A DNA stretch of 14,361 nt from a virus (lineage: Duplodnaviria > Heunggongvirae > Uroviricota > Caudoviricetes): IMG/VR virus record IMGVR_UViG_2531839662_000017, positions 1-14,361 of that record. One strand, given 5' to 3'. Positions 1,053-14,361 of the stretch are shown here, piece by piece (positions within the stretch are counted from its first letter, which is position 1; each line of letters opens with the position of its first letter). The position numbers and the translations under genes are program-made. The notes under the pieces are model-generated. The model saw only the letters and a program-made list of their open reading frames with translations, was not told the origin of the DNA and made no database searches.

Positions 1053-2108
1053 TTATGCTTTCCACTTCAGGACACCCGAATTTCTCGCGTGCATTAAAAA
1101 ACGAATCAGCAACAACAGCTGGCTGCCGTGTTTTTCTTCAAAATCTTTTACCCCGGTGTGCAGTTCGTTATGACATTTACGGCACAATGGAATAACAAAC
1201 AAATCGTCAGCCTTTGTTCCCATCCCTCCCAGTCCATGACCAATGATGTGATGCGGATCATCTGCCTGATTACCGCACGTCATGCATTTCTGCGTTTTTA
1301 CCCAGCGCGTGTATACAGGCATCTCTTCCCGTTGTGGTTTCTGGCGCTGGAGATACTGAGCCGGTGACTCCGGATCAACGGCAATGCTGACCACTGTCTT
1401 TTCCTGTGGCGGGTTTTGCTGGTGGGCGTGAGGCAGCGGCGCAAGATTTTTTGTGCGCTGCTTCAGTATGCTGGTGGCGGTCTGCTCTCCCGGCACGATG
1501 TCGCTCTCGCGGTATACTGAGCGAATTTTTTCCGCGCGCAATCCCAGCGAACGACGTAATACCGTCTCCGGTAGTGCGTCCGCTACGTTATTTATGGTTG
1601 CCCACCAAGATAATTCAGCCAGCGATAATTCCCGCTCCTGCGTGCCATTCATTGCATGGTGTATGACGTCAATCATCCATGCTGACAGGTTTTGATGAGC
1701 AAGTTGCTCGAGTGATTCGGATGTCTGGTCACGCAGCTGGTTGTCGCAGTGCCAGCACAACACCATTGCGCCGGTACCATAACGGTGAATAACGGTTTCG
1801 CTGTGATGATAATCGCCGTGTGGCCACTGGCAGGATTTAACATGACGCAGGAGCCAGTCAGACAGTGCACCAGCGCCGCCGGCAGCACGAATCACCCGCT
1901 CATCGCTGAAAAATGGCAGCAGAGATTTGTCTTCCGCCAGCGGCTGGCGAACGGCAGGAACGACCCCGGACGGCAGACCGCGCATGCTTTTTGGCTCCGG
2001 TTCAACCAGCACTCTGCCGTTATGGAATACCTGCATGGATTCACGACCTGGCTTAACGATAACCACCCCAAGTTCCGGCACCAGAACAGGTCGAAGTAAT
2101 ACCCGCAC
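1053..2108 (-). CDS. DUF968/YdfU-like phage protein with C-terminal Cys/His (HNH-like) motif
   Basis: 351-aa ORF tightly packed between the rem-like gene and rusA (1-nt and 0-nt gaps). C-terminus carries CMTCGN...HHIIGHG...CRKCHNELH. Size and position resemble YdfU of Qin-type prophages (recalled, not searched). The true start may be internal. Confidence 0.6.
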   Translation of the reverse strand: MRVLLRPVLVPELGVVIVKPGRESMQVFHNGRVLVEPEPKSMRGLPSGVVPAVRQPLAEDKSLLPFFSDERVIRAAGGAGALSDWLLRHVKSCQWPHGDYHHSETVIHRYGTGAMVLCWHCDNQLRDQTSESLEQLAHQNLSAWMIDVIHHAMNGTQERELSLAELSWWATINNVADALPETVLRRSLGLRAEKIRSVYRESDIVPGEQTATSILKQRTKNLAPLPHAHQQNPPQEKTVVSIAVDPESPAQYLQRQKPQREEMPVYTRWVKTQKCMTCGNQADDPHHIIGHGLGGMGTKADDLFVIPLCRKCHNELHTGVKDFEEKHGSQLLLLIRFLMHARNSGVLKWKA

Positions 2109-2109
2109 G

Positions 2110-2382
2110 TTACCTCCAGATGCGTTGCTGGAATGTGCGGGACGGACGCGGTGGGCGTTCGGAATAAGGGAGCCTGACAGAAATTATCCAGTGTCGGAAG
2201 TCAGGGCTGAGGTCTTTCTGAAAGTCGTACCCACGCCTGCGGTAGTTCTGAATCAGCCATTCGGCCTGTTCTTCAGTGCATGGGGCATGCTGGTACCAGT
2301 CATATTTGAATGTATGAGAACGCCGCCCGTGCCAGCTGGCAAGGTCGGTATCAGAATTGTGATGTTTGGTATTGTGCGCCAT
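2110..2382 (-). CDS. Small phage protein, rem-position ORF
   Basis: 90-aa ORF immediately upstream of the DUF968 gene in the same operon, in the position rem occupies in Qin-like prophages. No recognisable catalytic motif. Confidence 0.5.
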   Translation of the reverse strand: MAHNTKHHNSDTDLASWHGRRSHTFKYDWYQHAPCTEEQAEWLIQNYRRRGYDFQKDLSPDFRHWIISVRLPYSERPPRPSRTFQQRIWR

Positions 2383-2455
2383 CGGTTTTCTCTGCTGGCG
2401 CAGCAGGTGCCAGTTGTTCAGGCTAGCCTGTAGATTGTAAACCAGAATACGTAAA

Positions 2456-2480
2456 ACAAAAAACCCGCCGAAGCGGGTTA
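2456..2480 (-). terminator. Intrinsic terminator downstream of the HTH-ImmA gene
   Basis: Minus strand reads ACCCGC-TTCG-GCGGGT followed by TTTTTTGTTTT (6-bp GC stem, tetraloop, U-tract), starting 4 nt after the stop codon at 2484. Confidence 0.7.
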
Positions 2481-2483
2481 TGC

Positions 2484-3605
2484 CTAGTGAATTTTGCCTC
2501 TAAGAGTTCGGTAAGATTGTAGTGAAACAACATCACCACTTCCTGGCAGTTCATGAACCGCAGGAAGATCATCTCCTACTAACTCATAAAAAATGTCCAC
2601 TTCTATATCCATTTCATCAGCTATACGCTGTGGGTCGTATCCTAACTCTTCAAATAAAAACGATAAAGCCCGACGGAATAACTCAGGACGCTCATGAGGG
2701 ATTAGATAATCTTCTTTTTCATCAATAGCTTCCCCTTTCCGTTTCAACCCCATAAATGCAGTTCTGTACTGCTCATCAGTCAAAAGTCCTAATTGATGAG
2801 CCCTGTAAACAATGGCAGCCTTACTTACTTTCCATGTCAACTTAAATTGGCTTAGTCCCTGCCAATTTATCCTCCCCCCCACAGGTCTTGGAAAATATTT
2901 CGCCATCGACGTTCTGGGAAGCAACAGAGCAGAGGCAAAACGGTTTGCCTGGGATTCAGTTAATCTATCCCCAGTAGAAATTCCTTCATGAAGAATCAAA
3001 TGGGCAACCTCATGAGCAATATCAAAGCGTTGCCTACAAGGTGAATTTTTAGCTGTATTTCGAACAATAAAAGGCCTTCGTAGAGGAACAGACAGTGCAT
3101 CTACTTCATCCGAAACGGAGTCAAATGAAGTAACAAACGCCCCAAGTTTCTCGGCAAGGCGAGTCATATTTTCAATTGGGCCAAAGCCTAAGCCCCACTC
3201 AATACGACATTTTTCTGCCGCTCGCTCGATATCTTCTTGTGTATGGACACGAAATTCAGGAAATCGAACAGGTGACAAATTAAGGTTATCTTCAAATACA
3301 TCAATAAAACGACGATAAAACTCAGCCTTAGCGAGTGTTGATAGCTTCGTTGACATCCTTGTCGAGGCGCGTTTACGAAAATGTACAATCTCTTCATTAA
3401 CAGGAGAATGTTCCTGCCCTTCGAAAAAGGCGGGCTTCACGCGCAAAACCTCGGCTAATTTATTTATAAGCTCTGGGGATGGAGTAGCTGAACCAGACTC
3501 CAGTCGCTGTACATACTGGCGTGTTTTTTCAACCTTCTCAGCAACCTGCTCCAGAGATAGCTCGTGATACAGACGAGCAAGTCTTAAATTAGTACCGTTA
3601 AACAC
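2484..3605 (-). CDS. Fusion protein: N-terminal XRE-family HTH plus ImmA/IrrE-type (COG2856) zinc metallopeptidase
   Basis: 373 aa, GTG start preceded by GGGTGA. N-terminal Cro/C1-type HTH (LSLEQVAEKVEKTRQYVQRLESG). HEVAH (HExxH) zinc-binding motif at residues 198-202, encoded at 3000-3014. Second gene of a two-gene operon, 10-nt gap after the upstream ORF. Confidence 0.85.
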   Translation of the reverse strand: MFNGTNLRLARLYHELSLEQVAEKVEKTRQYVQRLESGSATPSPELINKLAEVLRVKPAFFEGQEHSPVNEEIVHFRKRASTRMSTKLSTLAKAEFYRRFIDVFEDNLNLSPVRFPEFRVHTQEDIERAAEKCRIEWGLGFGPIENMTRLAEKLGAFVTSFDSVSDEVDALSVPLRRPFIVRNTAKNSPCRQRFDIAHEVAHLILHEGISTGDRLTESQANRFASALLLPRTSMAKYFPRPVGGRINWQGLSQFKLTWKVSKAAIVYRAHQLGLLTDEQYRTAFMGLKRKGEAIDEKEDYLIPHERPELFRRALSFLFEELGYDPQRIADEMDIEVDIFYELVGDDLPAVHELPGSGDVVSLQSYRTLRGKIH

Positions 3606-3615
3606 ATTTCACCCA

Positions 3616-4209
3616 CTATTTGCTATTTTGTTTCTTTTCCTTCTCAGTCTTAGACGCACTGATAGGTTCTAGTTCGATAGGTACCGGTGCTGGAGGTACA
3701 TCATCGACAGAGTTCAGCATAACAACACGGTCCGCACCATATGTCCAAGTTGACACGATCTCACCAAACACGTTATAGCCATTAAAAATGACTCTACCAC
3801 CCTCGCCTTCAAATTCAGGCTTTTCAACCACAAAGCGATGCATAGTTGGAGTAGTCTCCTCTGACTCAAAGAGTCGATCAGCATCATTTCTTTTGAAAAA
3901 ACCGCGTTTCTTGGGGTTATCTGCGTCATCAGTAAAGAAACGAATAGGGACATTCCCAATTGAAAACGTAAGATCCATGCCAGGATTAAGTAGTCTTAAC
4001 CAGTCATATGTCTTTCGTACGCACATTTGTAGCAACGCCTGCCGCTGACGCCCAAATGTACAACCACCACGAGTGTAATTATCATCATAGGGCGATGACA
4101 ATAACTCATGAGTAATATCCTGTATCCTGAGCAACTCCTCAGCTATAATGGTTAAACGCTCCTCTGTTAACTCAGGAAAGAACTCCCAAGGGAATGGATG
4201 GTTCTGCAT
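3616..4209 (-). CDS. Hypothetical protein, upstream partner of the HTH-ImmA gene
   Basis: ORF track gives 3616..4257 from a TTG. The ATG at 4207-4209 (MQNHPFPWEF...) has a GGAG Shine-Dalgarno 8 nt upstream and is preferred, giving 197 aa. I recognise no family. Codon usage is lower-GC than the phage backbone. Confidence 0.65.
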   Translation of the reverse strand: MQNHPFPWEFFPELTEERLTIIAEELLRIQDITHELLSSPYDDNYTRGGCTFGRQRQALLQMCVRKTYDWLRLLNPGMDLTFSIGNVPIRFFTDDADNPKKRGFFKRNDADRLFESEETTPTMHRFVVEKPEFEGEGGRVIFNGYNVFGEIVSTWTYGADRVVMLNSVDDVPPAPVPIELEPISASKTEKEKKQNSK

Positions 4210-4258
4210 AGACACTTCTCCGCCTAATCCGTGCAAAAAACGACTTTTGTCAACCAAG

Positions 4259-4287
4259 ATATTGGTGCATATTCATAATTTTGTCAA
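4259..4287 (-). promoter_or_regulatory. Candidate sigma70 promoter of the two-gene cassette
   Basis: Minus-strand TTGACA (4287-4282), 17-nt spacer, CAATAT (4264-4259), about 45 nt upstream of the preferred ATG. The -10 is weak. Confidence 0.3.
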
Positions 4288-4290
4288 CCA

Positions 4291-4315
4291 ATAAAAAACC
4301 CGCCGAAGCGGGTTA
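4291..4315 (-). terminator. Intrinsic terminator downstream of the hok remnant (identical copy of the 2456-2480 hairpin)
   Basis: Same ACCCGC-TTCG-GCGGGT plus T-run on the minus strand. The 23 nt at 4293-4315 are identical to 2458-2480. Confidence 0.65.
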
Positions 4316-4382
4316 AGTGCGGGTGCGTTGAGGATGCCTGACACATCAGAGGTGGCGAGGGATTTCTCCCTCGCCTGGTCTC

Positions 4383-4502
4383 TTACTCCTCAGGTTCGTA
4401 AGCTGTGAAGACAGCGACCTCCGTCTGGCCGGTTCGGATTCGTACCTCGCAGAGGTCTTTCCTCGTTATCAGTACCGCAACAATTTCGTATTCATGATTC
4501 AT
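4383..4502 (-). pseudogene. hok-family toxin remnant, 5'-truncated (HokD/RelF-like C-terminus)
   Basis: Minus-strand translation ...IVAVLITRKDLCEVRIRTGQTEVAVFTAYEPEE* matches the conserved Hok C-terminal half. Only 39 codons are in frame from an ATG (MNHEYE...), an in-frame TGA lies just upstream, and the hydrophobic N-terminal helix is missing. Homology ends where the AT-rich DNA begins (about 4480). A perfect 9-bp hairpin at 4354-4375 lies in the 3' UTR. Confidence 0.55.
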
Positions 4503-4659
4503 TTCATCTAAAACAGTTCATAAACCTAAATAAATTCAAAAAATCACAACACAAATAAATATAAATTATCTCATCCTGAAGAACGATAGGATTATTTAGA
4601 ATTAATAACAATTAATGTAACAATAATTATCAATCCAGATTATTCAAATAAAATGTCAT

Positions 4660-5706
4660 TTACCATATGGAGTTGTGAATGAACTTTAATTCATTTTTTA
4701 TTTTGTTAACAGATAAATTCACGGATGTCCTAACTCTATTCACAGTCATTGCATCTCCTGGATTTAACAACTCTAATGGTTTAGACTTAGCACTTGACAT
4801 TCTGCCACTACCCAGAAAATCATCAAGAATCACAATGTGATTATTAGGATCATCTGTTGTAAAATTACTAATATTTTGTCGAATTACCTCTCTTACAGCT
4901 TCGATGTACATTTTTGTCTGTTGATTTGGTTTATTCCTTGCTCCTGCCACTGTTGACCATCCGCAATGGGTAATAACCACCATCTGAATTTTTGGTGTAT
5001 GGCCATCAGACGGCATTATCTTTCTAAATTCTGATGTTGGTTTAGTCAGAGTATCAATAAGTAATCTTAATGAATTAATCGATTGCTGATCTGTCCTCAC
5101 TGGAACTATTAAAGCATCTGTTGCATGCCAAGATAAATGCGTCGCTCCAGAGAAAAAAGGTGATGTATCAATTAACGCTTTTGTAGTACCAGTTTCAACC
5201 ATTTCTCTGGCTATTTCTTTCTTCAGAGAAAAAAGAATTGTATCAATAACAACCTGCTGAGTAGCCCCAGAAATTGTTCTGGCTTGAGCCAGAGCATTCG
5301 CCATTTGCGTAGGTAGAAGATAAAGTTGACTATCAGATTGAATAAAATAGTTATTCTTGCCCGCAAACCAAGCATTAGTTGATGATACTAGCTTTGCAGC
5401 ACGCGTTGCAAATCCAAGCCCTGGAACAAAATAAGGCATTAAGAGGTCATTTGCAGTTGTGCTAGACGAAGATGCATAATTATTGTCAAAAAAATATGAT
5501 AAATTTCCTTGCGGGCACGTATCCACGATTAATGCGTTATCCGCCAAATATGACAGATTAAAAGTTAAAGATGTCTTACCAATGCCTCCCCGTAAATTAC
5601 ATACTGTATATTTATCATATTTCGGCAAATTAAGACTTCTTACATTACCGTCAGCAACTTCGAATTGACGCTCTATCAGAGCATTAACATTTGATTCACT
5701 AGTCAT
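4660..5706 (-). CDS. ParA/MinD/BcsQ-like P-loop ATPase (deviant Walker A), AT-rich accessory gene
   Basis: 348 aa with VCNLRGGIGKTSLTFNLSY (Walker A of KGGxGK[ST] type, with R replacing the signature K as in BcsQ) followed by IVDTCPQGNL (ParA-type D-x-PQ-N). The gene and its flanks are markedly AT-rich compared with neighbouring phage genes. Confidence 0.7.
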   Translation of the reverse strand: MTSESNVNALIERQFEVADGNVRSLNLPKYDKYTVCNLRGGIGKTSLTFNLSYLADNALIVDTCPQGNLSYFFDNNYASSSSTTANDLLMPYFVPGLGFATRAAKLVSSTNAWFAGKNNYFIQSDSQLYLLPTQMANALAQARTISGATQQVVIDTILFSLKKEIAREMVETGTTKALIDTSPFFSGATHLSWHATDALIVPVRTDQQSINSLRLLIDTLTKPTSEFRKIMPSDGHTPKIQMVVITHCGWSTVAGARNKPNQQTKMYIEAVREVIRQNISNFTTDDPNNHIVILDDFLGSGRMSSAKSKPLELLNPGDAMTVNRVRTSVNLSVNKIKNELKFIHNSIW

Positions 5707-5736
5707 ATCGCCACCATTAGTTTTACACTTTTATTG

Positions 5737-5765
5737 ATGATATGGAAAACTAACCTAGTTGTCAA
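5737..5765 (-). promoter_or_regulatory. Near-consensus sigma70 promoter for the ParA-like gene
   Basis: Minus-strand TTGACA (5765-5760), 17-nt spacer, TATCAT (5742-5737), about 30 nt upstream of the ATG at 5706. Confidence 0.5.
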
Positions 5766-5913
5766 CAATGGATTAAAAAACAAACACACAAGCGTTTATC
5801 AAAAGCACCTTGATTGGTGATACTACCGTGTCTTTCAGCCAAACAGTTCAGTATGTAAAGCGAATCCAACATCAATTAAGAACGTTTTCAGCGCTCCCCC
5901 AGTTGTCTAGATG

Positions 5914-6091
5914 TCAAACTTCATGCGCTCTCCTGTCGAAATAAACGTACTGATTAATCATGCCCAAGGACATTTCGCGTTTTACAGCGATATCACGGCG
6001 GGGAACTCCACACTGATGAAGCTTCCGCACTAGCTCAATATCGCTTTGCGGATGTTTTTTTGATTGGTTATAACCCCCCCCCTCTTAACAT
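5914..6091 (-). pseudogene. Small HTH ORF (weakly NinH-like), split by a frameshift at a G9/C9 homopolymer
   Basis: Minus strand reads ATG-MLRGGG into the G9 run and hits a stop. Removing one G gives a 58-aa ORF MLRGGGYNQSKKHPQSDIELVRKLHQCGVPRRDIAVKREMSLGMINQYVYFDRRAHEV* with an HTH-like core. The NinH resemblance is weak and from memory. Confidence 0.35.
6074..6082. repeat. C9 (minus-strand G9) homopolymer tract
   Basis: Nine consecutive C residues counted directly in the sequence, lying inside the frameshifted small ORF. Confidence 0.9.
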
Positions 6092-6192
6092 CCTATTGAT
6101 ACCCAGTTCCTGCGCTTTCGCTCTGACAGCATAACTAGAACGATCAATCAACCCTCCTATGCTTTCGACCGTCAACGCGTCTACACAATTGC

Positions 6193-6648
6193 CTAAGCGC
6201 CATGATTTCCCTCATGCACAACCTGTTCACCGAATGTCTCTCGAAAACCATTCTGGTAAAATGCCAGTACACGCTGCATAGCTTCGCTCTTCCGGCACTC
6301 GCGACAGATTATATTCAGGCGCCTATCGTAGCGACGCATTTCTCCGTCTGGTAATGACCAGATAAGGTCCGGATCAACCACAGATGGTTTCTTCAGATTT
6401 GCCCTTGAGAGTTTTTTGCGGGCGTTTTGCCAGTCCTTACGAGCCTGTTCAGACGGGAATAACCCGTAGCCAGAGTTATATACATCGCCACTGGCAACCA
6501 GCTCTCTGGCGATAACACTCATCAGATATCTTGTCGCACCAGTTTTCGCTTCCAGTTGCCGTAACGTCTCGCGCCCGCTCTGGCGTACCAGCTCAACAAC
6601 CTGCCCTTTAATTTTTTCTCGCTCTTCCTGTGTAAATACTTTTGCCAT
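6193..6648 (-). CDS. Hypothetical nin-region phage protein
   Basis: The ORF track extends to 6714, but the ATG at 6646-6648 (MAKVFTQEE...) has a GGGAGG Shine-Dalgarno and removes the overlap with the upstream gene, giving 151 aa. No family recognised. Confidence 0.55.
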   Translation of the reverse strand: MAKVFTQEEREKIKGQVVELVRQSGRETLRQLEAKTGATRYLMSVIARELVASGDVYNSGYGLFPSEQARKDWQNARKKLSRANLKKPSVVDPDLIWSLPDGEMRRYDRRLNIICRECRKSEAMQRVLAFYQNGFRETFGEQVVHEGNHGA

Positions 6649-6664
6649 AAGCCCTCCCCAGGAA

Positions 6665-7435
6665 TCACTTTTCCGGCACAATACGACTGGAGGAATCGAC
6701 AATCTGTCGGACAATATCCCGGTGCTTGTTCAGCTCCCGCAGCGCGGCGCAAACTCGCTCCCACTTCTGGGCATGACTTTTCGCCCGGCGCAGTTCGCGG
6801 TTTGCCATATGCAGCGATGGTAAAATCAGGCCATCAGCTCGTGTTTCAGTGAACGATGGCAGCGACTGCACAATGTCCGCCACAGTTTCTGTTTTAATAT
6901 CTTCCTGTGTTGCAGCTTCCTGTACTGGTAACGCAACACTTGCTGGCTGAGGAAAGGCTTTACCATCAGTTTCCGCTACCAATGCAGCTTTCGGCTCTGC
7001 TGGTAAATTATCGCCCGGTATGCAGTAGCGAAATTTACCGTTCTGGTTTACGCGTGCCAGCCGCCCCGTTGCGGTTACTACCGCCAGCGTGGAAGCAACC
7101 TTGCGAGTGCTGACACCGAACTTACCCGCCAGTTCCTCACACGTTTTAGCTCCCTCCTGACCGATAAACTCAATCATCATGTCAGCGGTAACTTTTCGTT
7201 CGACCTCCCTGGTTAGCACATCCTGTACTTCAGATTGTGCTGGCTGCTCTTCGGCTACCCCTGATTCACCTTCGCCAGCCACACGCCAGGTGTATACGCT
7301 TTTATCAACGAAGCCAGCCTTTTTCAGTTCCCACAGCTCGTTCAGTACTTCTTCACGACTGATATCAAGTCGCGCAGCCAGCTCTACCGACGTGGCTTTT
7401 CCCATCGCTTTCAGTGCGTCAAAAACGGTCTCCAT
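6665..7435 (-). CDS. Hypothetical phage protein with N-terminal winged-helix-like region
   Basis: The ORF track start at 7486 overlaps the DnaC-like gene. The ATG at 7433-7435 ([13 protein letters not shown]...) has a GGAGG Shine-Dalgarno 8 nt upstream, giving 256 aa. The N-terminus has a helix-turn-helix-like pattern ([28 protein letters not shown]). Confidence 0.6.
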
Positions 7436-7457
7436 TAAAATTTCCTCCCGGTAAAAA

Positions 7458-8204
7458 TTACTTCTCAATACCTGGCTGACCAACATTCGGGCGCCAGCTC
7501 TCCCAGTTAAAATTCACCCAGCGCCCGCCGTTCATGGTCATGCGATCCATAATCCGCTCGCCGAGCAATGTTTTCATGGCCTCATAGTTCAGGTTTGTCA
7601 GCATCCCCACGCTGCGCATCGACGCTGTCCGGCGATCAACAATCTGGTGCAGTACCACCTGCTCGTTTTTCGTCTCGCGCTGAATACCAATTTCATCAAG
7701 AACCAGCAGATCCACTTCGCACAGTTCCCGCAAAAATTTTTCGCCTGATTGCCCGTCGTCATAGCTGGCGTGTAGAGCACTCATGACATCAGCCACGGTA
7801 ACCACAATCACTGTCTGGCCATCTTTCAGCAGGCGATTCCCGATAGCCGCCGCTAAGTGGTTTTTCCCGGTACCAGGTTTTCCGCTGAATGCGAAATTTG
7901 TGCATCCGGTCATCAGTTCATCGGCGATGGATTTCGCCTGGCTCAACGCGTATCGCTGGCCGTCATTCTGCACCTGGTAATTCGCAAACGAGCACTTGCG
8001 GTGCAACGGCTGGATGCCGGAGCGATTCAGAATTTTTTCCACCCGCAACTGACGATTCTGGCGGTTGATCTCCTCGCAACGCTTCTGGCCTTCTGCAAGT
8101 TGCCACTCGCGCCACTCGTCCACTGTTCGGTATGGCGCGGTTACATGCTGCGGAGCCAGCTTACGGATGCGTTCAAGAACACCGCCTGTCGCAATATTTT
8201 TCAT
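7458..8204 (-). CDS. DnaC-like replicative helicase loader (IstB-type AAA+ ATPase)
   Basis: 248 aa with Walker [16 protein letters not shown] and Walker B LLVLDEIG. Follows the O-like gene by 6 nt with a GGGGG Shine-Dalgarno. Confidence 0.85.
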
Positions 8205-8210
8205 GCTTCG

Positions 8211-9158
8211 TTACCCCCTGAATCCCGGCGGAATTTCGGTGTCCGGTTCAGAAATGTGATTCACGCAACGCTGTACAGGCGAACGCCCCAGACGAATAAC
8301 CAGCTCATCCCATTTTTCGCGAAGCTTTGACGGGCTCATGACGTTTTTTACCCAGAATGGATCCCGCTGTACCCGACCAAACATTTCGCAAATTTGTCTG
8401 TGAGTTCTGCCATCCAGCATCCGCATTGTGCGCACATCATTGGCCCATGCAGTCCAGTTGGGTTCTTTCGGTCGCATGATTTCGCCATCATCGCTGGCAG
8501 CCTGCTCGTAAAGACTCACGATTCGTCCCCAGATCCACTGCGCACACGCTAAATCCTCCTGGCTGCCCCACTGGCGTTTTTTCGCACTGAACACAACCGC
8601 GTCAGGGTGTCGGGTTAAAAAATCCTGTTCAGCCGTCTGCGGGTCCGGTTGCGAAGCGTCCGGACGAAAAGATCTTTTATCTGACGGATCAGGTTTTAAT
8701 ACTGACGGATCGGGGCCAACCATCGCCCCCCTATCCGACTGTTTTTTATCAATGGTTGATCCATCAAAATTTGAGGGGTCAACCGTTGAGGGGGCAATAT
8801 TTGACGGGTCATTTTTTGCCTGGCTAATTTTTCTTTTCGGTTTATATGCCTCACGCGCCGCCGCTGCTGCTGCTTCGAGTTTTTCCACATTAAGGCGGTA
8901 GATATTGCTTTCATTACGCCCACCGACCTTACGTTCCTCCTTCTTCAGCCAGCCGTTCTTTTCCAGTTCCGCTATCGCCGCTTTAACCGTTGATTCACTC
9001 TTTGCTCCAATCTGACGACGAATGGTCTCCACTGCAGGCCATGACACACCTTCGTCATTGCTGTAATCTGCAAGGCGAGCCATTACTGCCACCCTGGATA
9101 AGATCATGCCGGTGAAGGCACACCCTTCCCAGACAAGACCATGAAGCTTGCTGCTCAT
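8211..9158 (-). CDS. Replication initiator, lambda O-like (origin-binding protein)
   Basis: 315-aa ORF just upstream of the DnaC-like gene. The DNA encoding its central low-complexity linker (DPSN/DPSV/DPSD repeats) contains iterons, as in lambda O. Confidence 0.7.
   Translation of the reverse strand: MSSKLHGLVWEGCAFTGMILSRVAVMARLADYSNDEGVSWPAVETIRRQIGAKSESTVKAAIAELEKNGWLKKEERKVGGRNESNIYRLNVEKLEAAAAAAREAYKPKRKISQAKNDPSNIAPSTVDPSNFDGSTIDKKQSDRGAMVGPDPSVLKPDPSDKRSFRPDASQPDPQTAEQDFLTRHPDAVVFSAKKRQWGSQEDLACAQWIWGRIVSLYEQAASDDGEIMRPKEPNWTAWANDVRTMRMLDGRTHRQICEMFGRVQRDPFWVKNVMSPSKLREKWDELVIRLGRSPVQRCVNHISEPDTEIPPGFRG
8681..8848. repeat. Putative phage replication origin: iterons plus AT-rich segment inside the O-like gene
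   Basis: Five copies of a 10-bp motif yTGAsGGrTC at 8681, 8702, 8771, 8786 and 8801 (the last three exactly 15 bp apart), clustered GATC sites, and an adjacent T-rich stretch at 8811-8848. Confidence 0.5.
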
Positions 9159-9181
9159 AAAAAACTCCGAACACCGTGCTT

Positions 9182-9607
9182 TTAGTGCATCACCACGGCA
9201 TTTCCCGCCGGACCACCACGATTCATCTGATTGAAACCAGCGATCGCCACTGCGACAAAATCATCAGCGTCTCTCACCAGTCGTTCCCGCATCTCCACCA
9301 GCTCCCGAAAATAGGCTGAACTGTGGCTGCGCATTCGGGCCACCAGCAGAGGTGGCATTGCCTTTTCGATCGCCGGTAACAGCGCCTGAATTTTTTTAAC
9401 CGCATCAGGGGTGTCTTTCTCCACCCAGCGGAAAATTTTCTGAGTATTGCGAGCCAGGGCTTCCGGATGCCTGTCGTCATATAGCTCTGGGAACGTCATA
9501 CCAAGCTCAAAATAAGCCCGGGTTATTTCAGCTGCTGGAACTTTTTCGCCATCAGGACGCGCCCAGGCATTCATCGCCATGCGGATGTGTTCATGCTTGA
9601 TTTTCAT
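9182..9607 (-). CDS. ydaT: YdaT-like protein (CII-position regulator)
   Basis: 141 aa beginning MKIKHEHI. Overlaps the upstream Cro-like gene by ATGA (9604-9607) and sits between cro-like and O-like genes, the lambda cII position. The name is from recalled Rac/CP-933P annotation. Confidence 0.55.
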   Translation of the reverse strand: MKIKHEHIRMAMNAWARPDGEKVPAAEITRAYFELGMTFPELYDDRHPEALARNTQKIFRWVEKDTPDAVKKIQALLPAIEKAMPPLLVARMRSHSSAYFRELVEMRERLVRDADDFVAVAIAGFNQMNRGGPAGNAVVMH

Positions 9608-9906
9608 GAATCAACTCCATCAGATAAGCATGCACTACAATCACCTTCAGCATGAACTACATGTGTTTGCCCCAAACGAATGCCGCTCGCATACTCAGGC
9701 CAAATAAGCTCCCAATCATGGGGTCGTAGCTCCGCCCTACTTACTTGGCCTTCCGTCGCAGATTCGATCATAAGGGCGCGGGTTGGAGATATAGCTGCTC
9801 GTCCAGACGCCATTTGCGATAAGTAAGATGGCGATACACCAAGTCTGGCCGCGAATTTCTTAGCATCACCAACCCTCAATGATTTAATAAACTCTTTTAA
9901 TGTCAT
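9604..9906 (-). CDS. ydaS: Cro-like HTH regulator (YdaS-like)
   Basis: 100 aa with HTH KKFAARLGVSPSYLSQMASGRAAISPTRALMIES. Divergent from the repressor gene across an operator-bearing intergenic region. Confidence 0.65.
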   Translation of the reverse strand: MTLKEFIKSLRVGDAKKFAARLGVSPSYLSQMASGRAAISPTRALMIESATEGQVSRAELRPHDWELIWPEYASGIRLGQTHVVHAEGDCSACLSDGVDS

Positions 9907-9916
9907 ACCTTCCTCG

Positions 9917-9997
9917 GTTTAGTGTTTTTTTGCGAGTTTAGTGTTTAATAAACCATTAAGTCAAGTATTTGCTTGTTTAGTGATTACTAAAGATAAT
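9917..9997. promoter_or_regulatory. Right operator/promoter region: three direct repeats GTTTAGTG(T/A)T plus divergent promoters
   Basis: Repeats at 9917-9926, 9936-9945 and 9975-9984. Candidate repressor promoter TTGCTT (9969-9974), 17 nt, GATAAT (9992-9997), placing the transcript start near the ATG at 10004 (leaderless, like lambda PRM). Candidate cro-like promoter on the minus strand: TTGACT (9964-9959) with -10 TAAACT. Confidence 0.45.
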
Positions 9998-10003
9998 TAC
10001 CAC

Positions 10004-10375
10004 ATGCAAAAAAAAGAAATTCGCCGTTTACGTCTCAAGGAGTGGTTTAAAGATAAAACTCTGCCACCCAAAGAGAAGAGCTACCTATCTCAACTAATGA
10101 GTGGGAGGGCCTCGTTTGGAGAAAAGGCTGCCAGAAGAATAGAGCAAACATACGGGATGCCGGAAGGGTATCTGGATGCGGAATACGCAGAACAACCGGA
10201 AGTTTCTCCACCACATGCAGGGTTAACGTCTAATCAACTGGAATTATTGCAGATTTTTTCAGCCTTCCCTGAGGATGAGCAACGCCAGATAATCAGCGAG
10301 TTAAAGCAGAAAAAAGAATCAATGGAAGATCTCATAGCGAGATGGATTGCGGCGCAAAAATGCCGCCGCGCCTGA
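10004..10375 (+). CDS. paaR: CI-like prophage repressor (PaaR-like HTH regulator), no S24 peptidase domain
   Basis: ATG at 10004 preferred over the GTG at 9941, which would read through the operator repeats. 123 aa with HTH KEKSYLSQLMSGRASFGEKAARRIEQ. First gene of a three-gene operon with the ParE-family toxin-antitoxin pair. Confidence 0.65.
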   Translation: MQKKEIRRLRLKEWFKDKTLPPKEKSYLSQLMSGRASFGEKAARRIEQTYGMPEGYLDAEYAEQPEVSPPHAGLTSNQLELLQIFSAFPEDEQRQIISELKQKKESMEDLIARWIAAQKCRRA

Positions 10376-10395
10376 GTTATAAAACCGGAGGAAAC

Positions 10396-10587
10396 ATGAA
10401 TAGAGCCCTTTCACCAATGGTTTCTGAATTTGAAACCATTGAACAAGAAAACAGTTACAACGAATGGCTGCGTGCGAAAGTAGCAACGAGCCTTGCAGAT
10501 CCGCGCCCAGCAATTCCCCATGACGAAGTTGAGCGCAGAATGGCAGAACGCTTTGCTAAAATGCGCAAGGAACGGAGCAAGCAGTAA
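10396..10587 (+). CDS. paaA: Small antitoxin partnered with ParE toxin (PaaA-like)
   Basis: 63 aa (MNRALSPMVSEFETIEQ...) with a GGAGG Shine-Dalgarno. Stop at 10585-10587 lies 1 nt before the toxin ATG. I recall this as the PaaA antitoxin of the paaR-paaA-parE systems in O157:H7 prophages. Confidence 0.65.
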   Translation: MNRALSPMVSEFETIEQENSYNEWLRAKVATSLADPRPAIPHDEVERRMAERFAKMRKERSKQ

Positions 10588-10588
10588 A

Positions 10589-10867
10589 ATGTTACCCGTG
10601 TTATGGCTTGAAAGCGCAGATACCGACCTAGATGATATAACTAGCTATATTGCTCGTTTCGACATAGATGCGGCTGAACGCTTATGGCAGCGATTAAGGG
10701 GTTGTGTGCTGCCGTTATCCGAACATCCGTATTTATACCCACCAAGCGACAGAGTACCTGGCTTGCGTGAGATTGTAGCCCACCCTAACTATATAATTCT
10801 ATACCGCGTAACAACATCAAGCGTTGAAGTAGTAAACGTGATCCACGCAAGACGCCAGTTTCCCTAA
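10589..10867 (+). CDS. parE: ParE/RelE-family toxin
   Basis: 92 aa with a ParE-like C-terminus (HPNYIILYRV...VEVVNVIHARRQFP), translationally coupled to the antitoxin. Confidence 0.8.
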   Translation: MLPVLWLESADTDLDDITSYIARFDIDAAERLWQRLRGCVLPLSEHPYLYPPSDRVPGLREIVAHPNYIILYRVTTSSVEVVNVIHARRQFP

Positions 10868-10928
10868 CTTTCACTACCAATAGAAACATAACAACCGCAA
10901 CGACTTTATCAAAAGCGTTGTGTTTGTT

Positions 10929-10970
10929 ACGCCCCGTGGTTTAGTTTTTACTTGACTTAAGTTTAATGTT
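10929..10970 (+). promoter_or_regulatory. pL-like promoter with two operator-like repeats
   Basis: GTTTAGTTTT (10929-10938) and GTTTAATGTT (10951-10960) each differ by one base from the right-operator repeat. They flank TTGACT (10942-10947), about 16 nt, TAAACT (10964-10969), a near copy of the cro-like promoter. Confidence 0.4.
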
Positions 10971-11077
10971 TATTAAACTAAAAATACCAACCCACCCCGC
11001 CCCACAGAATGCAGGGCAATACTTCGAGTTACCAGGCAGTGGTCAGGGGTTAAGTAGCCAGCCCGAGGCGTAAGAAC

Positions 11078-12943
11078 ATGACGGCAGGGTTCAACTTTAA
11101 TAACTATGCAGCAGGTTTTTGTTCCGCTACCCCGGCGTTAAGGGGAAATGAGGTCAGCATGGATACTATCGATCTTGGCAACAACGAATCTCTGGTATGC
11201 GGCGTGTTCCCCAACCAGGACGGTACGTTCACCGCGATGACATATACCAAAAGCAAAACGTTTAAAACCGAATCTGGCGCGCGTTGCTGGTTAGCCAGAA
11301 ACAATGAAGTTATCGACAAAGATCGCGAAGACTGGAAGCGCATTTCCGCATCAATGCGCAAACAACCCGATGCCGTCCGCTACGACCGTCAGACTATTTT
11401 TGGCCTTGTCCGTGAGCGTCCGATCGACATTCACAAAGATCCCGTAGCACTGAACAAATACATCACTGAATACCTGGCGACAAAGGGCGTGTTTGAGGAT
11501 GAAGAAACAGACCAGAACGCTGCTGATATTCTCCAGCCGTCAGCAGCACAAACTGATGCAGTGGAAACTGAAGTATCTGATACCCAAAAAAATGAAAGCA
11601 CGCTGGAAACTGAACCATCTGTAGAGCGTGAGGGGCCGTTCTACTTCCTTTTCACCGATAAGGATGGCGAAAAATATGGTCGTGCAAACAAACTTTCTGG
11701 TCTGAATAAGGCGCTGGCTGCAGGGGCTACTGAAATCACGAAAGAAGAATATTTTGCCCGCAAAAACGGTACATACTCAGGCTCACAACAAAATACTGGT
11801 GCATCTGACACGACCGCACAACCAGAGCCGGTAAAAGTTACCGCTGACGAAGTAAACAAAATTATGCAGGCAGCCAATATCAGCCAGCCTGACGCTAATG
11901 AACTGCTTGCTGCCTCTCGCGGAGAATTTGTTGCAGGGATTAGCGACCCGAATGATCCGAAATGGGTGAAGGGGATTGAAACCCGCGATTCTGTGAACCA
12001 GAACCAGCAAGAAACGGAACAGAACGACCAGAAAGCGGAACAAAACAGCCCAAATGCGTTACAAAACGAGCCGGAAACAAAACAACCTGAGCCAGTAGCG
12101 CAACAGGAAGCGGAAAAAGTCTGCACCGCCTGCGGTCAGAGCGGTGGCGGCAACTGCCCTGATTGTGGCGCGGTGATGGGCGACGCAACATACCAGGAAA
12201 CATTCGATGAAGAGAATCAGGTTGAAGTTCAGGAAAACGATCCGGAGAAAATGGAAGGCGCTGAACATCCACACAAGGAGAATGCTGGCAGCGCTCAGGA
12301 CCACGCCAGCGATAATGAAACTGGCGAGGCGGCAGATCACTCAATTAAGATGAACGGTCATCACGAAATCACATCCACCAGCAGGACGTGTGACCATCTA
12401 ATGATCGACCTCGAAACCATGGGAAAAAATCCTGATGCCCCGGTTATCTCAATAGGTGCAATATTTTTCGATCCGCAAACCGGAGATATGGGACCGGAAT
12501 TTAGTAAGACTATCGATCTGGAAACTGCTGGCGGAGTCATTGATCGGAACACCATTAAATGGTGGCTGAAGCAATCACGCGAAGCGCAATCTGCCATTAT
12601 GACCGATGAAATCCCGTTAGATGATGCACTGTTACAATTGCGAGAATTTATCGACGAAAACTCCGGTGAATTTTTTGTTCAGGTCTGGGGAAATGGAGCC
12701 AACTTCGACAACACGATTTTGCGCCGTTCATACGAACGGCAGGGGATCCCCTGCCCGTGGCGTTACTACAACGATCGCGATGTACGCACAATCGTTGAGC
12801 TGGGGAAAGCCATAGACTTCGATGCCAGAACGGCTATTCCATTCGAAGGTGAGCGCCATAATGCACTTGATGACGCTCGTTACCAGGCAAAATACGTTTC
12901 AGCTATCTGGCAAAAACTGATCCCGAGTCAGGCTGATTTTTAA
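11078..12943 (+). CDS. Multidomain protein with C-terminal DnaQ-like (DEDDh) 3'-5' exonuclease domain
   Basis: 621 aa. C-terminal third carries Exo motifs MIDLETMG (D-x-E), [11 protein letters not shown] and HNALDDARY. Preceded by a Cys4 zinc-ribbon ([16 protein letters not shown]) and an acidic Q/E-rich low-complexity linker. The start could instead be Met28 at 11159. Confidence 0.75.
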
Positions 12944-13004
12944 TGTTCAACCGTCGCCAGTTGTCGTTGGTATTCTGCAACTGGCGCGTTCCGGAGTGAT
13001 AGCC

Positions 13005-13274
13005 ATGAGCGAACAGTACCTGATAACGCTCGATGAGTGGAAGCCAAAACGGTTCAGTCTCCCAATAACAAACACTACCCTGGTGAAATACGGAAAACTA
13101 GGATACATCGTTCCAAGACCACAAAAAATTCGTGGGCGTTGGCTGATAGATCGCCGAGCAGTATTTGTTGGACCTGGTGAAACAGGAATTGCGCCGGAAA
13201 TTCATACTGGCGATGATGATGCACTGAAGGAGATTTTAACTCATGTCACCGAGGCCACGAAAAAACAGCACTGA
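13005..13274 (+). CDS. xis: Excisionase (Xis-like)
   Basis: ATG at 13005 with GGAG 8 nt upstream (ORF track starts at a GTG at 12996). 89 aa, small and basic. Overlaps the integrase start by 32 nt, as lambda xis/int do. Confidence 0.6.
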   Translation: MSEQYLITLDEWKPKRFSLPITNTTLVKYGKLGYIVPRPQKIRGRWLIDRRAVFVGPGETGIAPEIHTGDDDALKEILTHVTEATKKQH

Positions 13275-14361
13275 CGTAGCCGGACTTTACGAAAAATTTG
13301 ATCGCAGAACTGGCAGAGTTTACTACCAGTATAAAAACCCTGTGACTGGAAAATTTCACGGGCTCGGAACAGACAAAGGTAAGGCAGAAAAAATCGCTTC
13401 CACAGCCAATCAGCGAATAGCTGCAGCAGAGGCTGAATATTTCATGCGCAAAATTGATGAAAGTCCGTCAGCAACAACGCGTCGGGGTATCAGATTAAAG
13501 GCATGGGTTGATCGATATCTGAAAATACAGGACACGCGACTGAAAAATGGAGATATTGCAGCTACAACTCACAAAGAAAAAGCCAGAATGGCTGCATACC
13601 TGGTTTCCCGTCTGGGAAACCACCCATTGAAAGAACTGGAAGTAAGAGACTTTGCATTAATACTGGATGAGTGGCTGGATAAAGACATGGTCAGCACAGC
13701 GAGAGTAAATCGTGGATTATGGGTTGATATTTATAAAGAAGCACAGCATGCAGGGGAAGTTCCTCCTGGATGGAATCCTCCGGAGGCCACCCGTAAACCG
13801 ATCCCTAAAGTAACCAGAGCCAGACTCACCCTGGAAGACTGGCAAAAAATTTACAACGCAACGCCAGAAAAACACTTTATCCGTAACGCAATGCTTCTTG
13901 CGATTGTTACTGGTCAGCGCCGTGATGACATTTACCACATGCGTTTTTCAGATGTGTGGAACGAACATTTGCATATCACCCAGGGAAAAACCGGAATGCG
14001 TCTGGCGTTACCGCTTACACTACGCTGTGATGCCATTGGGATAACGTTAAAAGAAGTTATTGATGGGTGCCGAGACAGAATATTAAGTCCATATCTAATC
14101 CATAGTCGGCACCAGAAACAACCGAAGCCGATGAGTAAAGACAACCTGAGCGACTACTTTGCCAAAGCACGGGATCTGGCTGGGATAATTCCACCAGCAG
14201 GAAAAACTCCGCCAACATTTCATGAACAACGCTCTCTATCAGAACGGCTGTACCGTGCACAGGGTATCGATACAAAAACATTACTAGGACATAAAGTCCA
14301 GGCAACCACCGATCGCTATAACGATACTCGAGGTCAGGAATGGGTTAAGTTGGTTATTTGA
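13243..14361 (+). CDS. int: Tyrosine site-specific recombinase (phage integrase)
   Basis: 372 aa with an arm-binding type N-terminus and a C-terminal catalytic region (...LLGHKVQATTDRYNDTRG..., candidate Tyr nucleophile in DRY). Stop codon is the last three bases of the window, so the attachment site probably lies just beyond. Confidence 0.9.
   Translation: MSPRPRKNSTDVAGLYEKFDRRTGRVYYQYKNPVTGKFHGLGTDKGKAEKIASTANQRIAAAEAEYFMRKIDESPSATTRRGIRLKAWVDRYLKIQDTRLKNGDIAATTHKEKARMAAYLVSRLGNHPLKELEVRDFALILDEWLDKDMVSTARVNRGLWVDIYKEAQHAGEVPPGWNPPEATRKPIPKVTRARLTLEDWQKIYNATPEKHFIRNAMLLAIVTGQRRDDIYHMRFSDVWNEHLHITQGKTGMRLALPLTLRCDAIGITLKEVIDGCRDRILSPYLIHSRHQKQPKPMSKDNLSDYFAKARDLAGIIPPAGKTPPTFHEQRSLSERLYRAQGIDTKTLLGHKVQATTDRYNDTRGQEWVKLVI

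Follow-up and report, generated by a model that had tools for sequence, protein, structure and literature searches.

A probable replication origin inside the initiator gene of a Rac-like lambdoid prophage

Introduction

Why is the linker of a phage replication initiator encoded by DNA in which a short motif returns at a fixed spacing, and does this DNA have a function of its own? The question is raised by a 14,361-nucleotide stretch of a Caudoviricetes record (IMGVR_UViG_2531839662_000017, positions 1 to 14,361), which is referred to here as the window. A first-pass annotation, made from the letters and their open reading frames, had proposed that repeats within an O-like gene mark a prophage origin of replication organized like lambda ori. 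The initiator type is common, yet databases label the gene only as 'helix-turn-helix domain-containing protein', which is also its RefSeq label in the window (8211-9158). Placing an origin in this gene would provide a testable handle on the induction-driven replication of Rac-like and Stx-related prophages, and it would explain the presence of a variable pentapeptide repeat in the initiator linker.

The initiator gene and its neighbours

The gene that contains the repeats lies on the minus strand (8211-9158) and encodes a protein of 315 aa that matches the PHROG family phrog_391 'replication initiation O-like' over its full length (E 1.5e-112). Its N-terminal part, about aa 1-95 (8874-9158, minus strand), is a winged-helix DNA-binding domain and the presumed iteron reader. 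Pfam places HTH_36 at aa 25-71 (E 5e-8), the only family detected at E<=0.01 in a search in which Phage_rep_O was not found. When a profile of the domain from 23 homologues was compared with the PDB, it gave weak and mostly non-significant matches to winged helices of the MarR/GntR type. The C-terminal domain (8295-8678, minus strand) is a homologue of the C-terminal half of lambda O, aa 161-288 aligning with residues 155-270 of lambda O at 36% identity over 128 aa (BLASTP, E 2e-25), and tblastn searches against many lambdoid phages were consistent with a lambda-O-like domain.

The protein ends in a DnaT-like tail, ...PDTEIPPGFRG (aa 295-315; 8214-8276, minus strand), for which a sequence search of the PDB returned weak matches to DnaT, or primosomal protein 1 (E 0.012-0.041). 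The same tail is carried by K-12 YdaU, with 13 of 19 residues identical. SKA5 and Phi06_2987 also have tails of this kind, and the tail of Klebsiella phage 1 LV-2017 (...SGFRT) has diverged further. It is possible that the tail serves as a contact for the helicase or its loader.

Directly downstream of the initiator lies the gene of a DnaC-like helicase loader (7458-8204, minus strand), which matches Pfam IstB_IS21 (E 5e-20) and Bac_DnaA (E 1e-8) as well as phrog_50 'DnaC-like helicase loader' (E 4e-86). Upstream, the same operon (9182-9906, minus strand) comprises the cro-like YdaS (9604-9906) and YdaT (9182-9607), assigned by annotation and by the Pfam families YdaS_toxin, HTH_3, P22_Cro and YdaT_toxin, and transcription from the YdaS/YdaT side passes through the repeat element. 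All the genes, in the order cro-like, cII-like, initiator and DnaC-like loader, are open and full length, and the earlier impression of an intact replication module is thus borne out. Positions 7400-9700 are 100% identical to ETEC4090, and the whole window is not.

A phased array of 12-bp sites

The repeats had been located in the DNA of the initiator linker, and indeed the array and the related second-type sites fall within codons 116-160, between HTH_36 and the lambda-O-like C-domain, the phased array covering residues 116-137. Three copies, TTGAGGGGTC, TTGAGGGGGC and TTGACGGGTC, start at 8771, 8786 and 8801 with the exact 15-bp spacing reported by the first-pass annotation. The short inverted repeat that it had described in addition, ATCAATGGTTGAT, is present at 8748-8760, but it is really the next unit of the array in reversed orientation (TTGATCCATCAA, 8756-8767), so that the array (8756-8812) has four 12-bp sites in exact 15-bp phasing. 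On the coding strand these read ATGACCCGTCAA (8801-8812), TTGCCCCCTCAA (8786-8797), TTGACCCCTCAA (8771-8782) and, in the opposite orientation, TTGATGGATCAA (8756-8767). Their consensus is TTGACCCCTCAA, one of the four being inverted, and they encode DPSNI-APSTV-DPSNF-DGSTI. The array was delimited by pattern search, and Tandem Repeats Finder, which listed only two tandem repeats for the whole window, independently reported one of period 15 at 8764-8811.

At up to two mismatches, TTGACCCCTCAA has four matches in the 14.4 kb, all of them array sites in 15-bp steps, and three or more matches within 60 bp were seen in none of 2000 dinucleotide-preserving shuffles. The pattern was picked post hoc, from the same data as this clustering test, and the comparative evidence is therefore the stronger test. 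Among the chance statistics, only the test of clustering and phasing is strong. Counts over the whole window are weak: 4 matches were seen where 1.3 are expected, and 9 of 200 shuffles had at least as many. The strict palindrome YTGANNNNTCAR has only four matches, one of which lies outside the array. Internal dyad symmetry, of the form TCAAnnnTTGA or TTGAssssTCAA, is present in the repeats and the related sites. The 15-bp spacing sets adjacent sites on nearly opposite faces of the helix, unlike the 20-24 bp of lambda, which is a point against an origin reading.

Second-type sites and an AT-rich island

A second type of site, GATCCGTCAG, occurs on the minus strand at 8702-8711 (copy 1) and 8681-8690 (copy 2), and both copies contain a Dam site. 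These are the positions at which CTGACGGATC had been noticed twice, 21 bp apart, as is confirmed here. In the homologues, the codons of copy 1 are Asp GAT in 81/81 and Ser TCA in 65/65, followed by Val GTA in 97%, and those of copy 2 are GAT in 73/73 and TCA in 62/62. Relatives of the phiP27 type have GATCCRCAAG at all copies in place of GATCCGTCAG. As a count over the whole window, GATCCGTCAG is weak, with 2 seen against 0.65 expected.

Both copies are overlapped by an AT-rich island (8662-8711) that is conserved in the family, lies on the C-terminal side of the array and contains GATC at 8671, 8687 and 8708 together with the palindrome AAAAGATCTTTT (8667-8678). The mean AT content of the island in 81 homologues is 0.63-0.71, compared with 0.34-0.44 in its flanks and 0.48 over the gene, and the window itself has 0.60-0.65 over about 50 bp. 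The island is the best candidate for a duplex-unwinding region.

The AT-rich segment of the first-pass annotation was a different one, a T-rich stretch on the N-terminal side (8813-8848; A-rich on the coding strand, encoding KPKRKISQAKN). The stretch exists, but it is only moderately AT-rich, with a GC content of 0.375-0.45 in 40-bp windows over about 8812-8848, and it is lineage-specific. The family mean at its position is only 0.47-0.56 AT and the stretch is missing from SKA5-type homologues. It is probably not the conserved unwinding element. Likewise, the clustered GATC sites are found as described, starting at 8671, 8687, 8708 and 8758, but their density is ordinary. As a statistical signal the cluster was rejected, four GATC in 100 bp being reached by 422 of 2000 shuffles; in contrast to the density, it is the conservation of these sites among homologues that is unusual.

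Between the array and the island, the segment 8712-8735 holds GGGGGCGATGGTTGGCCCC. This is what remains, in degenerate form, of GGGGTCAATGGTTGACCCC, a 19-bp palindrome preserved intact in relatives from Erwinia and Edwardsiella. TTAAGGGGTCAA is found 33 bp after the last unit in the relatives L007, L011 and L019 and 48 bp after it in L009, while L008 has a 2-mismatch variant, CTAAGGGGTCAA, at that position. The window and its E. coli relatives show more than three mismatches at the position of the 19-bp palindrome. The degeneracy in the window of this palindrome of the ancestral set counts against an origin reading, as does the lack of a strongly AT-rich 40-bp tract like that of lambda, the best stretch being about 50 bp with 60-70% AT.

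Constraint on synonymous sites

Codon choice was compared in 81 non-identical homologues from many genera of Enterobacterales. At conserved residues of the N-domain (65 columns), normalised entropy is 0.84 and the mean top-codon fraction 0.50, compared with 0.26 and 0.88 at conserved residues of the linker (31 columns; Mann-Whitney p=5e-12). Near-fixed linker codons are Ser TCA (78/78), Ser TCT (60/60), Asp GAT (81/81), Val GTA (97%) and Glu GAA (100%). Each unit contains two Ser positions, each with a fixed codon of its own, TCT and TCA. Among 776 Ser codons of the repeat, 715 are TCA; outside the repeat, these genes use TCA for 307 of 2008. Conservation tracks the motif rather than the codon position. 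The first-pass annotation had named, as the result that would speak against it, repeats explained solely by Asp-Pro-Ser codons with no conservation at synonymous positions. The opposite is observed, the synonymous sites of the linker being near-frozen in the 81 homologues.

In order to delimit the constraint, codon identity given the same amino acid was scanned in sliding 15-codon windows over 12 full-length homologues. The full zone, taken as the estimated extent of the cis element, is 8634-8828, where codon identity is 0.74-0.94. Across the flanking domains it mostly lies at 0.32-0.57, with aa 271-285 (0.64) and aa 291-305 (0.14) as the two outlying windows. It is exactly in the zone of highest codon identity that the amino acids are least conserved (identity 0.26-0.62). 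The distal edge of the zone, at the junction to the C-domain, is CGT CCG GAC GCT TCG CAA CCG GAC (8643-8666, minus strand). SKA5 and the window share all of these codons, and Klebsiella phage 1 LV-2017 differs from them in the first only, with TGT in place of CGT. In the 81-sequence set, the junction codons TGT and GAC both reach 1.00.

The codon comparison establishes the segment at about 8634-8828 as a DNA element that acts in cis and whose nucleotide sequence is itself under strong purifying selection. As judged from the homologues, the element is composed of 12-bp sites in variable copy number at 15-bp phasing, followed by two or three related GATC sites in an AT-rich island, and its repeats are maintained by selection on the DNA itself and not on the encoded protein. 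Selection on the DNA itself makes it very probable that a replication origin of the prophage lies inside its own initiator gene.

Variation and inheritance among relatives

Relatives of the initiator occur in more than 30 genera, and among 5426 complete E. coli genomes, about 1200 contain the greater part of the 2.3-kb module (coverage of at least 80%). They carry 3-10 units, 4-5 in the close E. coli relatives, in both orientations and always in the same codon phase. At this same 15-bp phase, TTGACCCCTCAA is read as Asp-Pro-Ser and its reverse complement, TTGAGGGGTCAA, as Glu-Gly-Ser. Within the window's subgroup, 40 units specify 22 different pentapeptides, and the numbers of distinct pentapeptides in the two groups are 22 and 81. 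Since the sites are in frame, the array would be translated as a tolerant pentapeptide linker, the peptide being a by-product of the DNA motif.

The N-domain and the repeats were found with at least three C-terminal domains, namely lambda-O-like, Phg_2220_C and the phiP27 type. Across these relatives, sequence comparison establishes that the repeats are always inherited together with the N-terminal winged-helix domain (HTH_36), whatever the C-domain. The unit is TCAAnnnTTGAssss in the window's N-domain subgroup and TCARAATCTGAYnnn, or TCAGAATCTGAC, in the SKA5 type; sites are of the DPQ type in phiP27-type relatives, and a Vibrio phage has GGTCAAA-type repeats. Repeat sequence thus co-varies with the DNA-binding domain of the initiator, over few independent groups. 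In K-12 YdaU, the N-domain and the internal repeats are both unrelated to those of the window. Finally, NZ_CP148542.1 is a 16-kb circular record made up of a prophage immunity-replication-lysis segment only, with this type of initiator, and replicon typing of it found no other replicon. This record lends weak support to the origin reading.

Alternative explanations

The segment might be a cis element of another kind, such as an operator of the initiator or of another regulator, an mRNA structure, or an internal or antisense promoter. The sites are palindromic, iteron-binding initiators often autoregulate, and, as RNA, 8640-8850 folds more stably than shuffled sequences do (z = -3.08). However, a fixed RNA fold is hard to square with 3-10 units in either orientation, and a search of Rfam gave no match. 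A sigma-70-like promoter was not found in 8400-9200, and operators normally lie at promoters rather than 350 bp into a gene. Moreover, the position of the segment equals that of lambda ori. Such a role appears unlikely as the explanation of the constraint, although regulation would be compatible with an origin. One terminator-like hairpin, at 8805-8822 on the plus strand, is no more than chance would give.

It has also to be considered whether the segment has no biochemical function and is instead a recombination 'linker', or a mosaic junction of phage modules that was exchanged recently. Conserved boundary sequences have been discussed for lambdoid phages; the constrained zone stops exactly at the point where C-domains are swapped, and identical 21-nt stretches are shared by phages that are only 59% identical in protein. 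Recent transfer predicts uniform identity, whereas fixed motifs and free spacers are seen to alternate with a 15-bp period, in a zone where amino-acid identity is at its lowest and non-synonymous and unit-number changes are many. The persistence of this pattern across more than 30 genera also makes a mosaic junction quite improbable.

A feature of the protein only, that is a flexible Asp-Pro-Ser-rich linker grown by duplication from DNA that has no function, is more improbable still. The repeats are in frame, the peptide is rich in residues typical of linkers, and slippage would duplicate codons inside one genome. Nevertheless, the codon test already contradicts this explanation, the same codons being kept from genus to genus while synonymous sites on either side are saturated and the peptide varies widely, with 22 and 81 distinct pentapeptides in two groups. 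In the same way, the switches from Asp-Pro to Glu-Gly are exact reverse complements of the DNA site, and the two Ser positions keep different codons.

Least credible is a second gene that overlaps the linker in another frame and constrains its synonymous sites: the window does contain a same-strand alternative-frame ORF (8696-8923, 75 aa), but the constraint runs about 60 bp beyond its stop, the same-strand alternative frames are open across the segment in 0/81 and 0/81 homologues and the best opposite-strand frame in only 39/81, and the explanation was rejected.

A model of the proposed origin

A replication origin is the reading that we consider likely for the segment at about 8634-8828, which would belong to a Rac-like lambdoid prophage and lie where the prophage's own initiator gene encodes the linker. 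The first-pass proposal gains support from the frozen synonymous sites, the free peptide, the two orientations and the lambda-like placement. The N-domain of the initiator would bind the phased sites and build a nucleoprotein complex comparable to the lambda O-some, and the duplex would open in the adjacent AT-rich, GATC-bearing island (8662-8711). The lambda-O-like C-domain and the DnaT-like tail could then bring host DnaB via the neighbouring phage DnaC-like loader. Firing may be modulated by rightward early transcription through the gene and by Dam methylation or SeqA binding at the conserved GATC sites.

More tentatively, and with somewhat less than even confidence, the locus may be taken as the type example of a widespread, undescribed class of origins in prophages of Enterobacterales and probably Vibrio. 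In this class, an HTH_36 initiator would recognize 12-bp sites of either orientation that are phased at 15 bp, the pentapeptide linker would be 'free-riding', opening would occur in a Dam-site AT island and the helicase would be delivered via the DnaT-like tail. Such delivery implies that the phage would use the host replication-restart interface and not a lambda-P-type loader. Literature searches on oriJ mapping, ydaU/ydaV replication, non-lambdoid Stx replication regions and lambdoid iterons found no description of this origin type, and no experiment demonstrating that an initiator of this family binds its sites or that such an origin fires. The locus offers an unusually clean natural case in which selection at the DNA level overrides selection at the protein level, a site being read as Asp-Pro-Ser or Glu-Gly-Ser depending on its orientation. 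Synonymous recoding or dN/dS analysis of these initiator genes would be misleading in the linker.

Comparison with known origins

E. coli oriC, with its 13-mers, and P1 oriR are iteron origins with methylation-sensitive unwinding regions. The window resembles them in its conserved GATC sites, which lie in an AT-rich part beside the presumed initiator-binding repeats. Unlike them, it has no DnaA-box cluster and its initiator is phage-encoded; the single consensus DnaA box (8881-8889) is at chance level and is missing in SKA5, the sole relative checked, by eye. Phage origins inside an initiator gene are also known from P22 gene 18 and SPP1 gene 38 (oriL). The principle of initiator sites in the initiator's own coding sequence is shared with these, but their protein families and repeats differ from those of the window.

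The Rac module ydaS-ydaT-ydaU-ydaV has the same gene order as the window, and the loader of the window is YdaV-like. Rac YdaU shares the C-terminal tail ...IPPGFRG with the window initiator and also has internal repeats in its middle part (AGATGTTCAAACA), which are unrelated to those of the window. Only its last 19 residues align, and its N-domain, unlike that of the window initiator, is DUF1376 (2.7e-26). The origin of Rac, oriJ, has been reported as active (PMC3945230), and PMC11014345 cites Potrykus 2000 for this activity. A text placing oriJ on the sequence was not found in the literature.

Lambda ori consists of the iterons ITN1-4 and an AT-rich region within gene O (PMC3349717, PMC7466680), the AT-rich region being at 39128-39172 (PMC3349717). 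In lambda and Stx phages, as here, iteron number varies between relatives and alters protein length, Stx variants with six being known (PMC7466680). The 'P27' of the latter study has a lambda-type O and hence appears not to be phiP27 (L17). The likeness to an origin within O claimed by the first-pass annotation is right for the placement, which agrees almost residue for residue, and not for the protein family. In both systems, the origin lies within the gene, between a DNA-binding N-domain and a C-domain, the lambda iterons being at O residues 117-145 with the C-domain from 155 and the window array at 116-137 with the C-domain from 161. The two C-domains are homologous (36% identity), the linker is the translation of several repeats with internal symmetry, and the gene order cro - cII-like - initiator - loader is shared. 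The AT-rich region of lambda is just before the C-domain, and the island at 8662-8711 has the corresponding position.

The differences concern the parts themselves. The N-domain is HTH_36 in the window, whereas lambda O belongs to Phage_rep_O (PF04492 at 5.7e-36). The units of lambda (ATCCCTCAAAACGAGGGA, about 19-20 bp) are spaced by 20, 24 and 23 bp, whereas those of the window are 12-bp TTGACCCCTCAA sites at 15 bp, unrelated in sequence and present in both orientations. An AT island with conserved GATC, much less AT-rich than expected for lambda, replaces the strong tract of lambda, and the loader is IstB/DnaC-like and not lambda P. As far as the sequences can tell, the layout is thus familiar from lambda while the DNA-binding domain and the repeat sequences are different. 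With its HTH_36 initiator and DnaC-like loader, the putative origin resembles lambda ori in layout and is not a member of the lambda ori family.

A repeat-built element within the initiator gene

The gene of the 315-aa initiator (8211-9158, minus strand) harbours a repeat-built element that is constrained at the DNA level, linked to the N-terminal domain and located at the position of the lambda origin within an intact replication operon. This early-right operon of a Rac-like lambdoid prophage of E. coli lies on the minus strand and runs from the cro-like YdaS gene (9604-9906) through YdaT (9182-9607) and the initiator to a DnaC/IstB-like loader (7458-8204). The stretch 7400-9700 is 100% identical to the porcine ETEC strains ETEC4090 and ETEC6335, and at least 80% of these 2.3 kb is present in about 1200 of 5426 complete E. 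coli genomes.

The initiator is a full-length match to PHROG 391 (replication initiation O-like; E 1.5e-112). Its N-terminal winged helix is an HTH_36 domain (aa 25-71, E 5e-8), and aa 161-288 are 36% identical to lambda O in the C-terminal half of the latter (E 2e-25). No match to the lambda O N-terminal family PF04492 was found in the initiator, while lambda O itself matches at 5.7e-36. The last 21 residues (8214-8276, minus strand; aa 295-315, ending in PDTEIPPGFRG) gave weak PDB matches to the C-terminus of DnaT/primosomal protein I (E 0.012-0.041). This ending is common to YdaU and the relative SKA5, with a looser version in another relative of different body. The tail may be a helicase or loader contact, perhaps a portable motif, and could account for some of the "primosomal protein I" annotations.

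All elements listed in the first-pass annotation, which took 8681-8848 for a likely prophage origin, were recovered in place. Codons 116-137 read, on the coding strand, as four units of 15 bp (AAT GAC CCG TCA AAT / ATT GCC CCC TCA ACG / GTT GAC CCC TCA AAT / TTT GAT GGA TCA ACC ATT) that contain the 12-bp sites ATGACCCGTCAA, TTGCCCCCTCAA and TTGACCCCTCAA and, in opposite orientation, TTGATGGATCAA (8756-8812). The short inverted repeat reported as a separate feature is this fourth unit. Beyond the array lies a G+C-rich spacer; GATCCGTCAG then occurs twice at a distance of 21 bp (8702-8711 and 8681-8690), and after it comes the palindrome AAAAGATCTTTT (8667-8678). The period-15 array was also called independently by Tandem Repeats Finder. 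Across the whole window, the four array sites are the only matches to TTGACCCCTCAA with at most two mismatches, and none of 2000 dinucleotide shuffles placed three or more within 60 bp. The clustered GATC sites are present but not significant alone, the cluster being reached in 422 of 2000 shuffles. The window has a single DnaA-box consensus match (TTTTCCACA, 8881-8889, plus strand); it falls within the initiator gene, about 70 bp away from the array, does not exceed chance (1.6 expected) and is absent from SKA5, the only relative inspected by eye.

Constraint on DNA rather than on peptide

Homologues of the N-domain and linker were gathered from 5 phage records, 80 species-representative-genome loci (more than 30 genera) and 80 IMG/VR contigs, giving a codon alignment of 81 non-identical sequences (N-domain identity median 75%, minimum 45%). 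In every intact homologue, two or three GATCC(G/A)TCAG-type sites come after a pentapeptide/15-bp array. The mean top-codon fraction is 0.50 in the N-domain (65 columns, normalised codon entropy 0.84) versus 0.88 in the linker (31 columns, entropy 0.26), a significant difference (Mann-Whitney p = 5e-12). In the linker, Ser is TCA in 78/78 sequences and the second Ser TCT in 60/60, Asp is GAT in 81/81 and 73/73, Val is GTA in 97%, and Glu and Cys are GAA and TGT in 100%. TCA encodes 715 of 776 serines in the repeat versus 307 of 2008 in the remainder of these genes. Among 12 full-length relatives, the identity of codons for unchanged residues is 0.32-0.57 over most of both domains (0.64 or 0.14 in isolated windows) and reaches 0.74-0.94 at 8634-8828, a stretch that coincides with the minimum of amino-acid identity (0.26-0.62). 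This pattern is the reverse of protein-level constraint.

The window's subgroup, comprising E. coli, Erwinia, Mixta, Morganella and Edwardsiella, has 22 different pentapeptides among 40 units. Both TTGACCCCTCAA (Asp-Pro-Ser/Pro) and the exact reverse complement of this site, TTGAGGGGTCAA (Glu-Gly-Ser/Leu), occur, invariably in one 15-bp phase, and per-position information tracks the motif TCAA nnn TTGA ssss, not codon position. An open alternative frame across the constrained zone was found in 0/81 and 0/81 sequences for the same-strand frames and in 39/81 for the best opposite-strand frame. The preserved entity is a DNA motif, not a peptide. Arrays hold 3-10 units (4-5 among close E. coli relatives); iteron number is likewise variable in lambda and Stx phages (PMC7466680).

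A regulatory or RNA element would find some support in the RNA fold (z = -3.1), but it fits poorly with the variable copy number and orientation, and neither a promoter nor an Rfam match was found. A recombination linker or recent transfer predicts uniform identity, whereas conservation is motif-periodic with variable spacers and unit numbers. A pure peptide repeat, that is, mere DPS codons with unconserved synonymous positions as envisaged in the first-pass annotation, is excluded by the nearly fixed linker codons of the 81 homologues.

Association of the repeats with the N-terminal domain

C-terminal domains of at least three unrelated kinds (lambda-O-like, Phg_2220_C and phiP27 type) follow the N-domain and array. 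The unit is TCAAnnnTTGAssss in the window's subgroup (N-domain identity 76-79%) and TCARAATCTGAYnnn in the large SKA5-type group (54-65%); in phiP27-type proteins, every second-type site reads GATCCRCAAG. Such co-variation, seen in few independent groups, is the behaviour expected of an initiator and its iterons. The distant HTH_36 initiator of Vibrio phage Va_PF430-3_p42 (29% identity) has repeats at the equivalent place, directly after the N-domain (1790-1867; GGTCAAATTCCGACC twice, with related and inverted copies). Linker-embedded origins may therefore be general for HTH_36 initiators beyond Enterobacterales.

Enterobacterial-type initiator genes were also encountered in assemblies titled Martelella alba, Vagococcus sp. 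and Chryseobacterium sp., one on a 742-bp contig and the others on 47-kb and 421-kb contigs; these probably reflect contamination or mislabelling, not true host range.

Predicted origin function

Computation gives the cis-element solid support, and its predicted function as an origin is probable. The winged-helix domain would bind the phased sites in an O-some-like complex, the adjacent island would open, and the C-domain would bring in DnaB via the DnaC-like loader. This island (8662-8711) is AT-rich throughout the family (mean AT 0.63-0.71, 81 sequences), has G+C-rich flanks and holds both GATCCGTCAG sites and three GATC sites. The T-rich stretch put forward earlier (about 8812-8848) exists and is moderately AT-rich, but it lies on the opposite side of the array and is not AT-rich in the family. 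Since the island is conserved and at the lambda-equivalent position, it is tentatively the best candidate for strand opening, yet it is much less AT-rich than the lambda tract. By analogy with oriC and P1 oriR, the conserved GATC sites suggest possible modulation by Dam/SeqA.

An initiator of the same type (87% identity) is found on a circular 15,977-bp E. coli record designated plasmid pZ1322PEC0161-2 (NZ_CP148542.1), which contains only a lambdoid prophage segment (cI, cro, initiator, DnaC-like loader, Q and lysis genes) and yielded no plasmid replicon on typing. This circle is either an autonomous fragment of the lambda-dv kind or an artefact of assembly that arose from amplification of the prophage in situ.

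Other features of the prophage

A ParA-family gene (4662-5708, minus strand) lies beside a truncated hok/gef remnant (4385-4486, minus strand), placing plasmid-like maintenance genes amid a lambdoid early region. Compared with ETEC4090, about 2.35 kb is missing at a junction near 11300. The missing segment takes in dicB, ydfD and two small genes, together with the 3' part of the DUF1391 gene on one side and the 5' part of the recE-like exonuclease gene on the other. The deletion, which we take to be reminiscent of recE-activating sbcA-type Rac deletions, leaves a single 621-aa ORF (11078-12943, plus strand), an apparent fusion of a DUF1391/ydaF-like start with the exonuclease. Porcine strain UMNF18 has a 100% identical junction, its ORF being annotated "3'-5' exoribonuclease domain-containing protein". 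The second tandem repeat of the window (11999-12046, period 21, 2.3 copies, unit CAGAACCACAAGAAAGCGGAA) lies within this ORF.

Comparison with known origins

For lambda and its relatives, as for other phages, an origin within its own initiator gene is textbook knowledge. The novelty lies in the family: its HTH_36 initiator is paired with a DnaC-like loader, its 12-bp sites are phased at 15 bp and occur in both orientations, and its island bears GATC sites. No description of such a family was found in the searchable literature, mostly without subscription journals, and an earlier one is possible. In lambda, O residues 117-145 hold the four iterons, spaced 20, 24 and 23 bp; alignment of the C-domain starts at residue 155, and the AT-rich region is located between iterons and C-domain (PMC3349717, PMC7466680). 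In the window, the array covers residues 116-137, with the C-domain starting at 161; because these positions correspond, the layout is colinear with that of lambda. YdaU of the K-12 Rac prophage has a DUF1376 N-domain unrelated to that of the window's initiator, and its internal repeats are unrelated too: inside ydaU (4120-4977 in the compared E. coli K-12 record, NC_000913), AGATGTTCAAACA occurs four to five times with inverted copies (4472-4578). This suggests that the classical origin oriJ, too, is embedded in the gene of its initiator and that its iterons bear no relation to those of the window.
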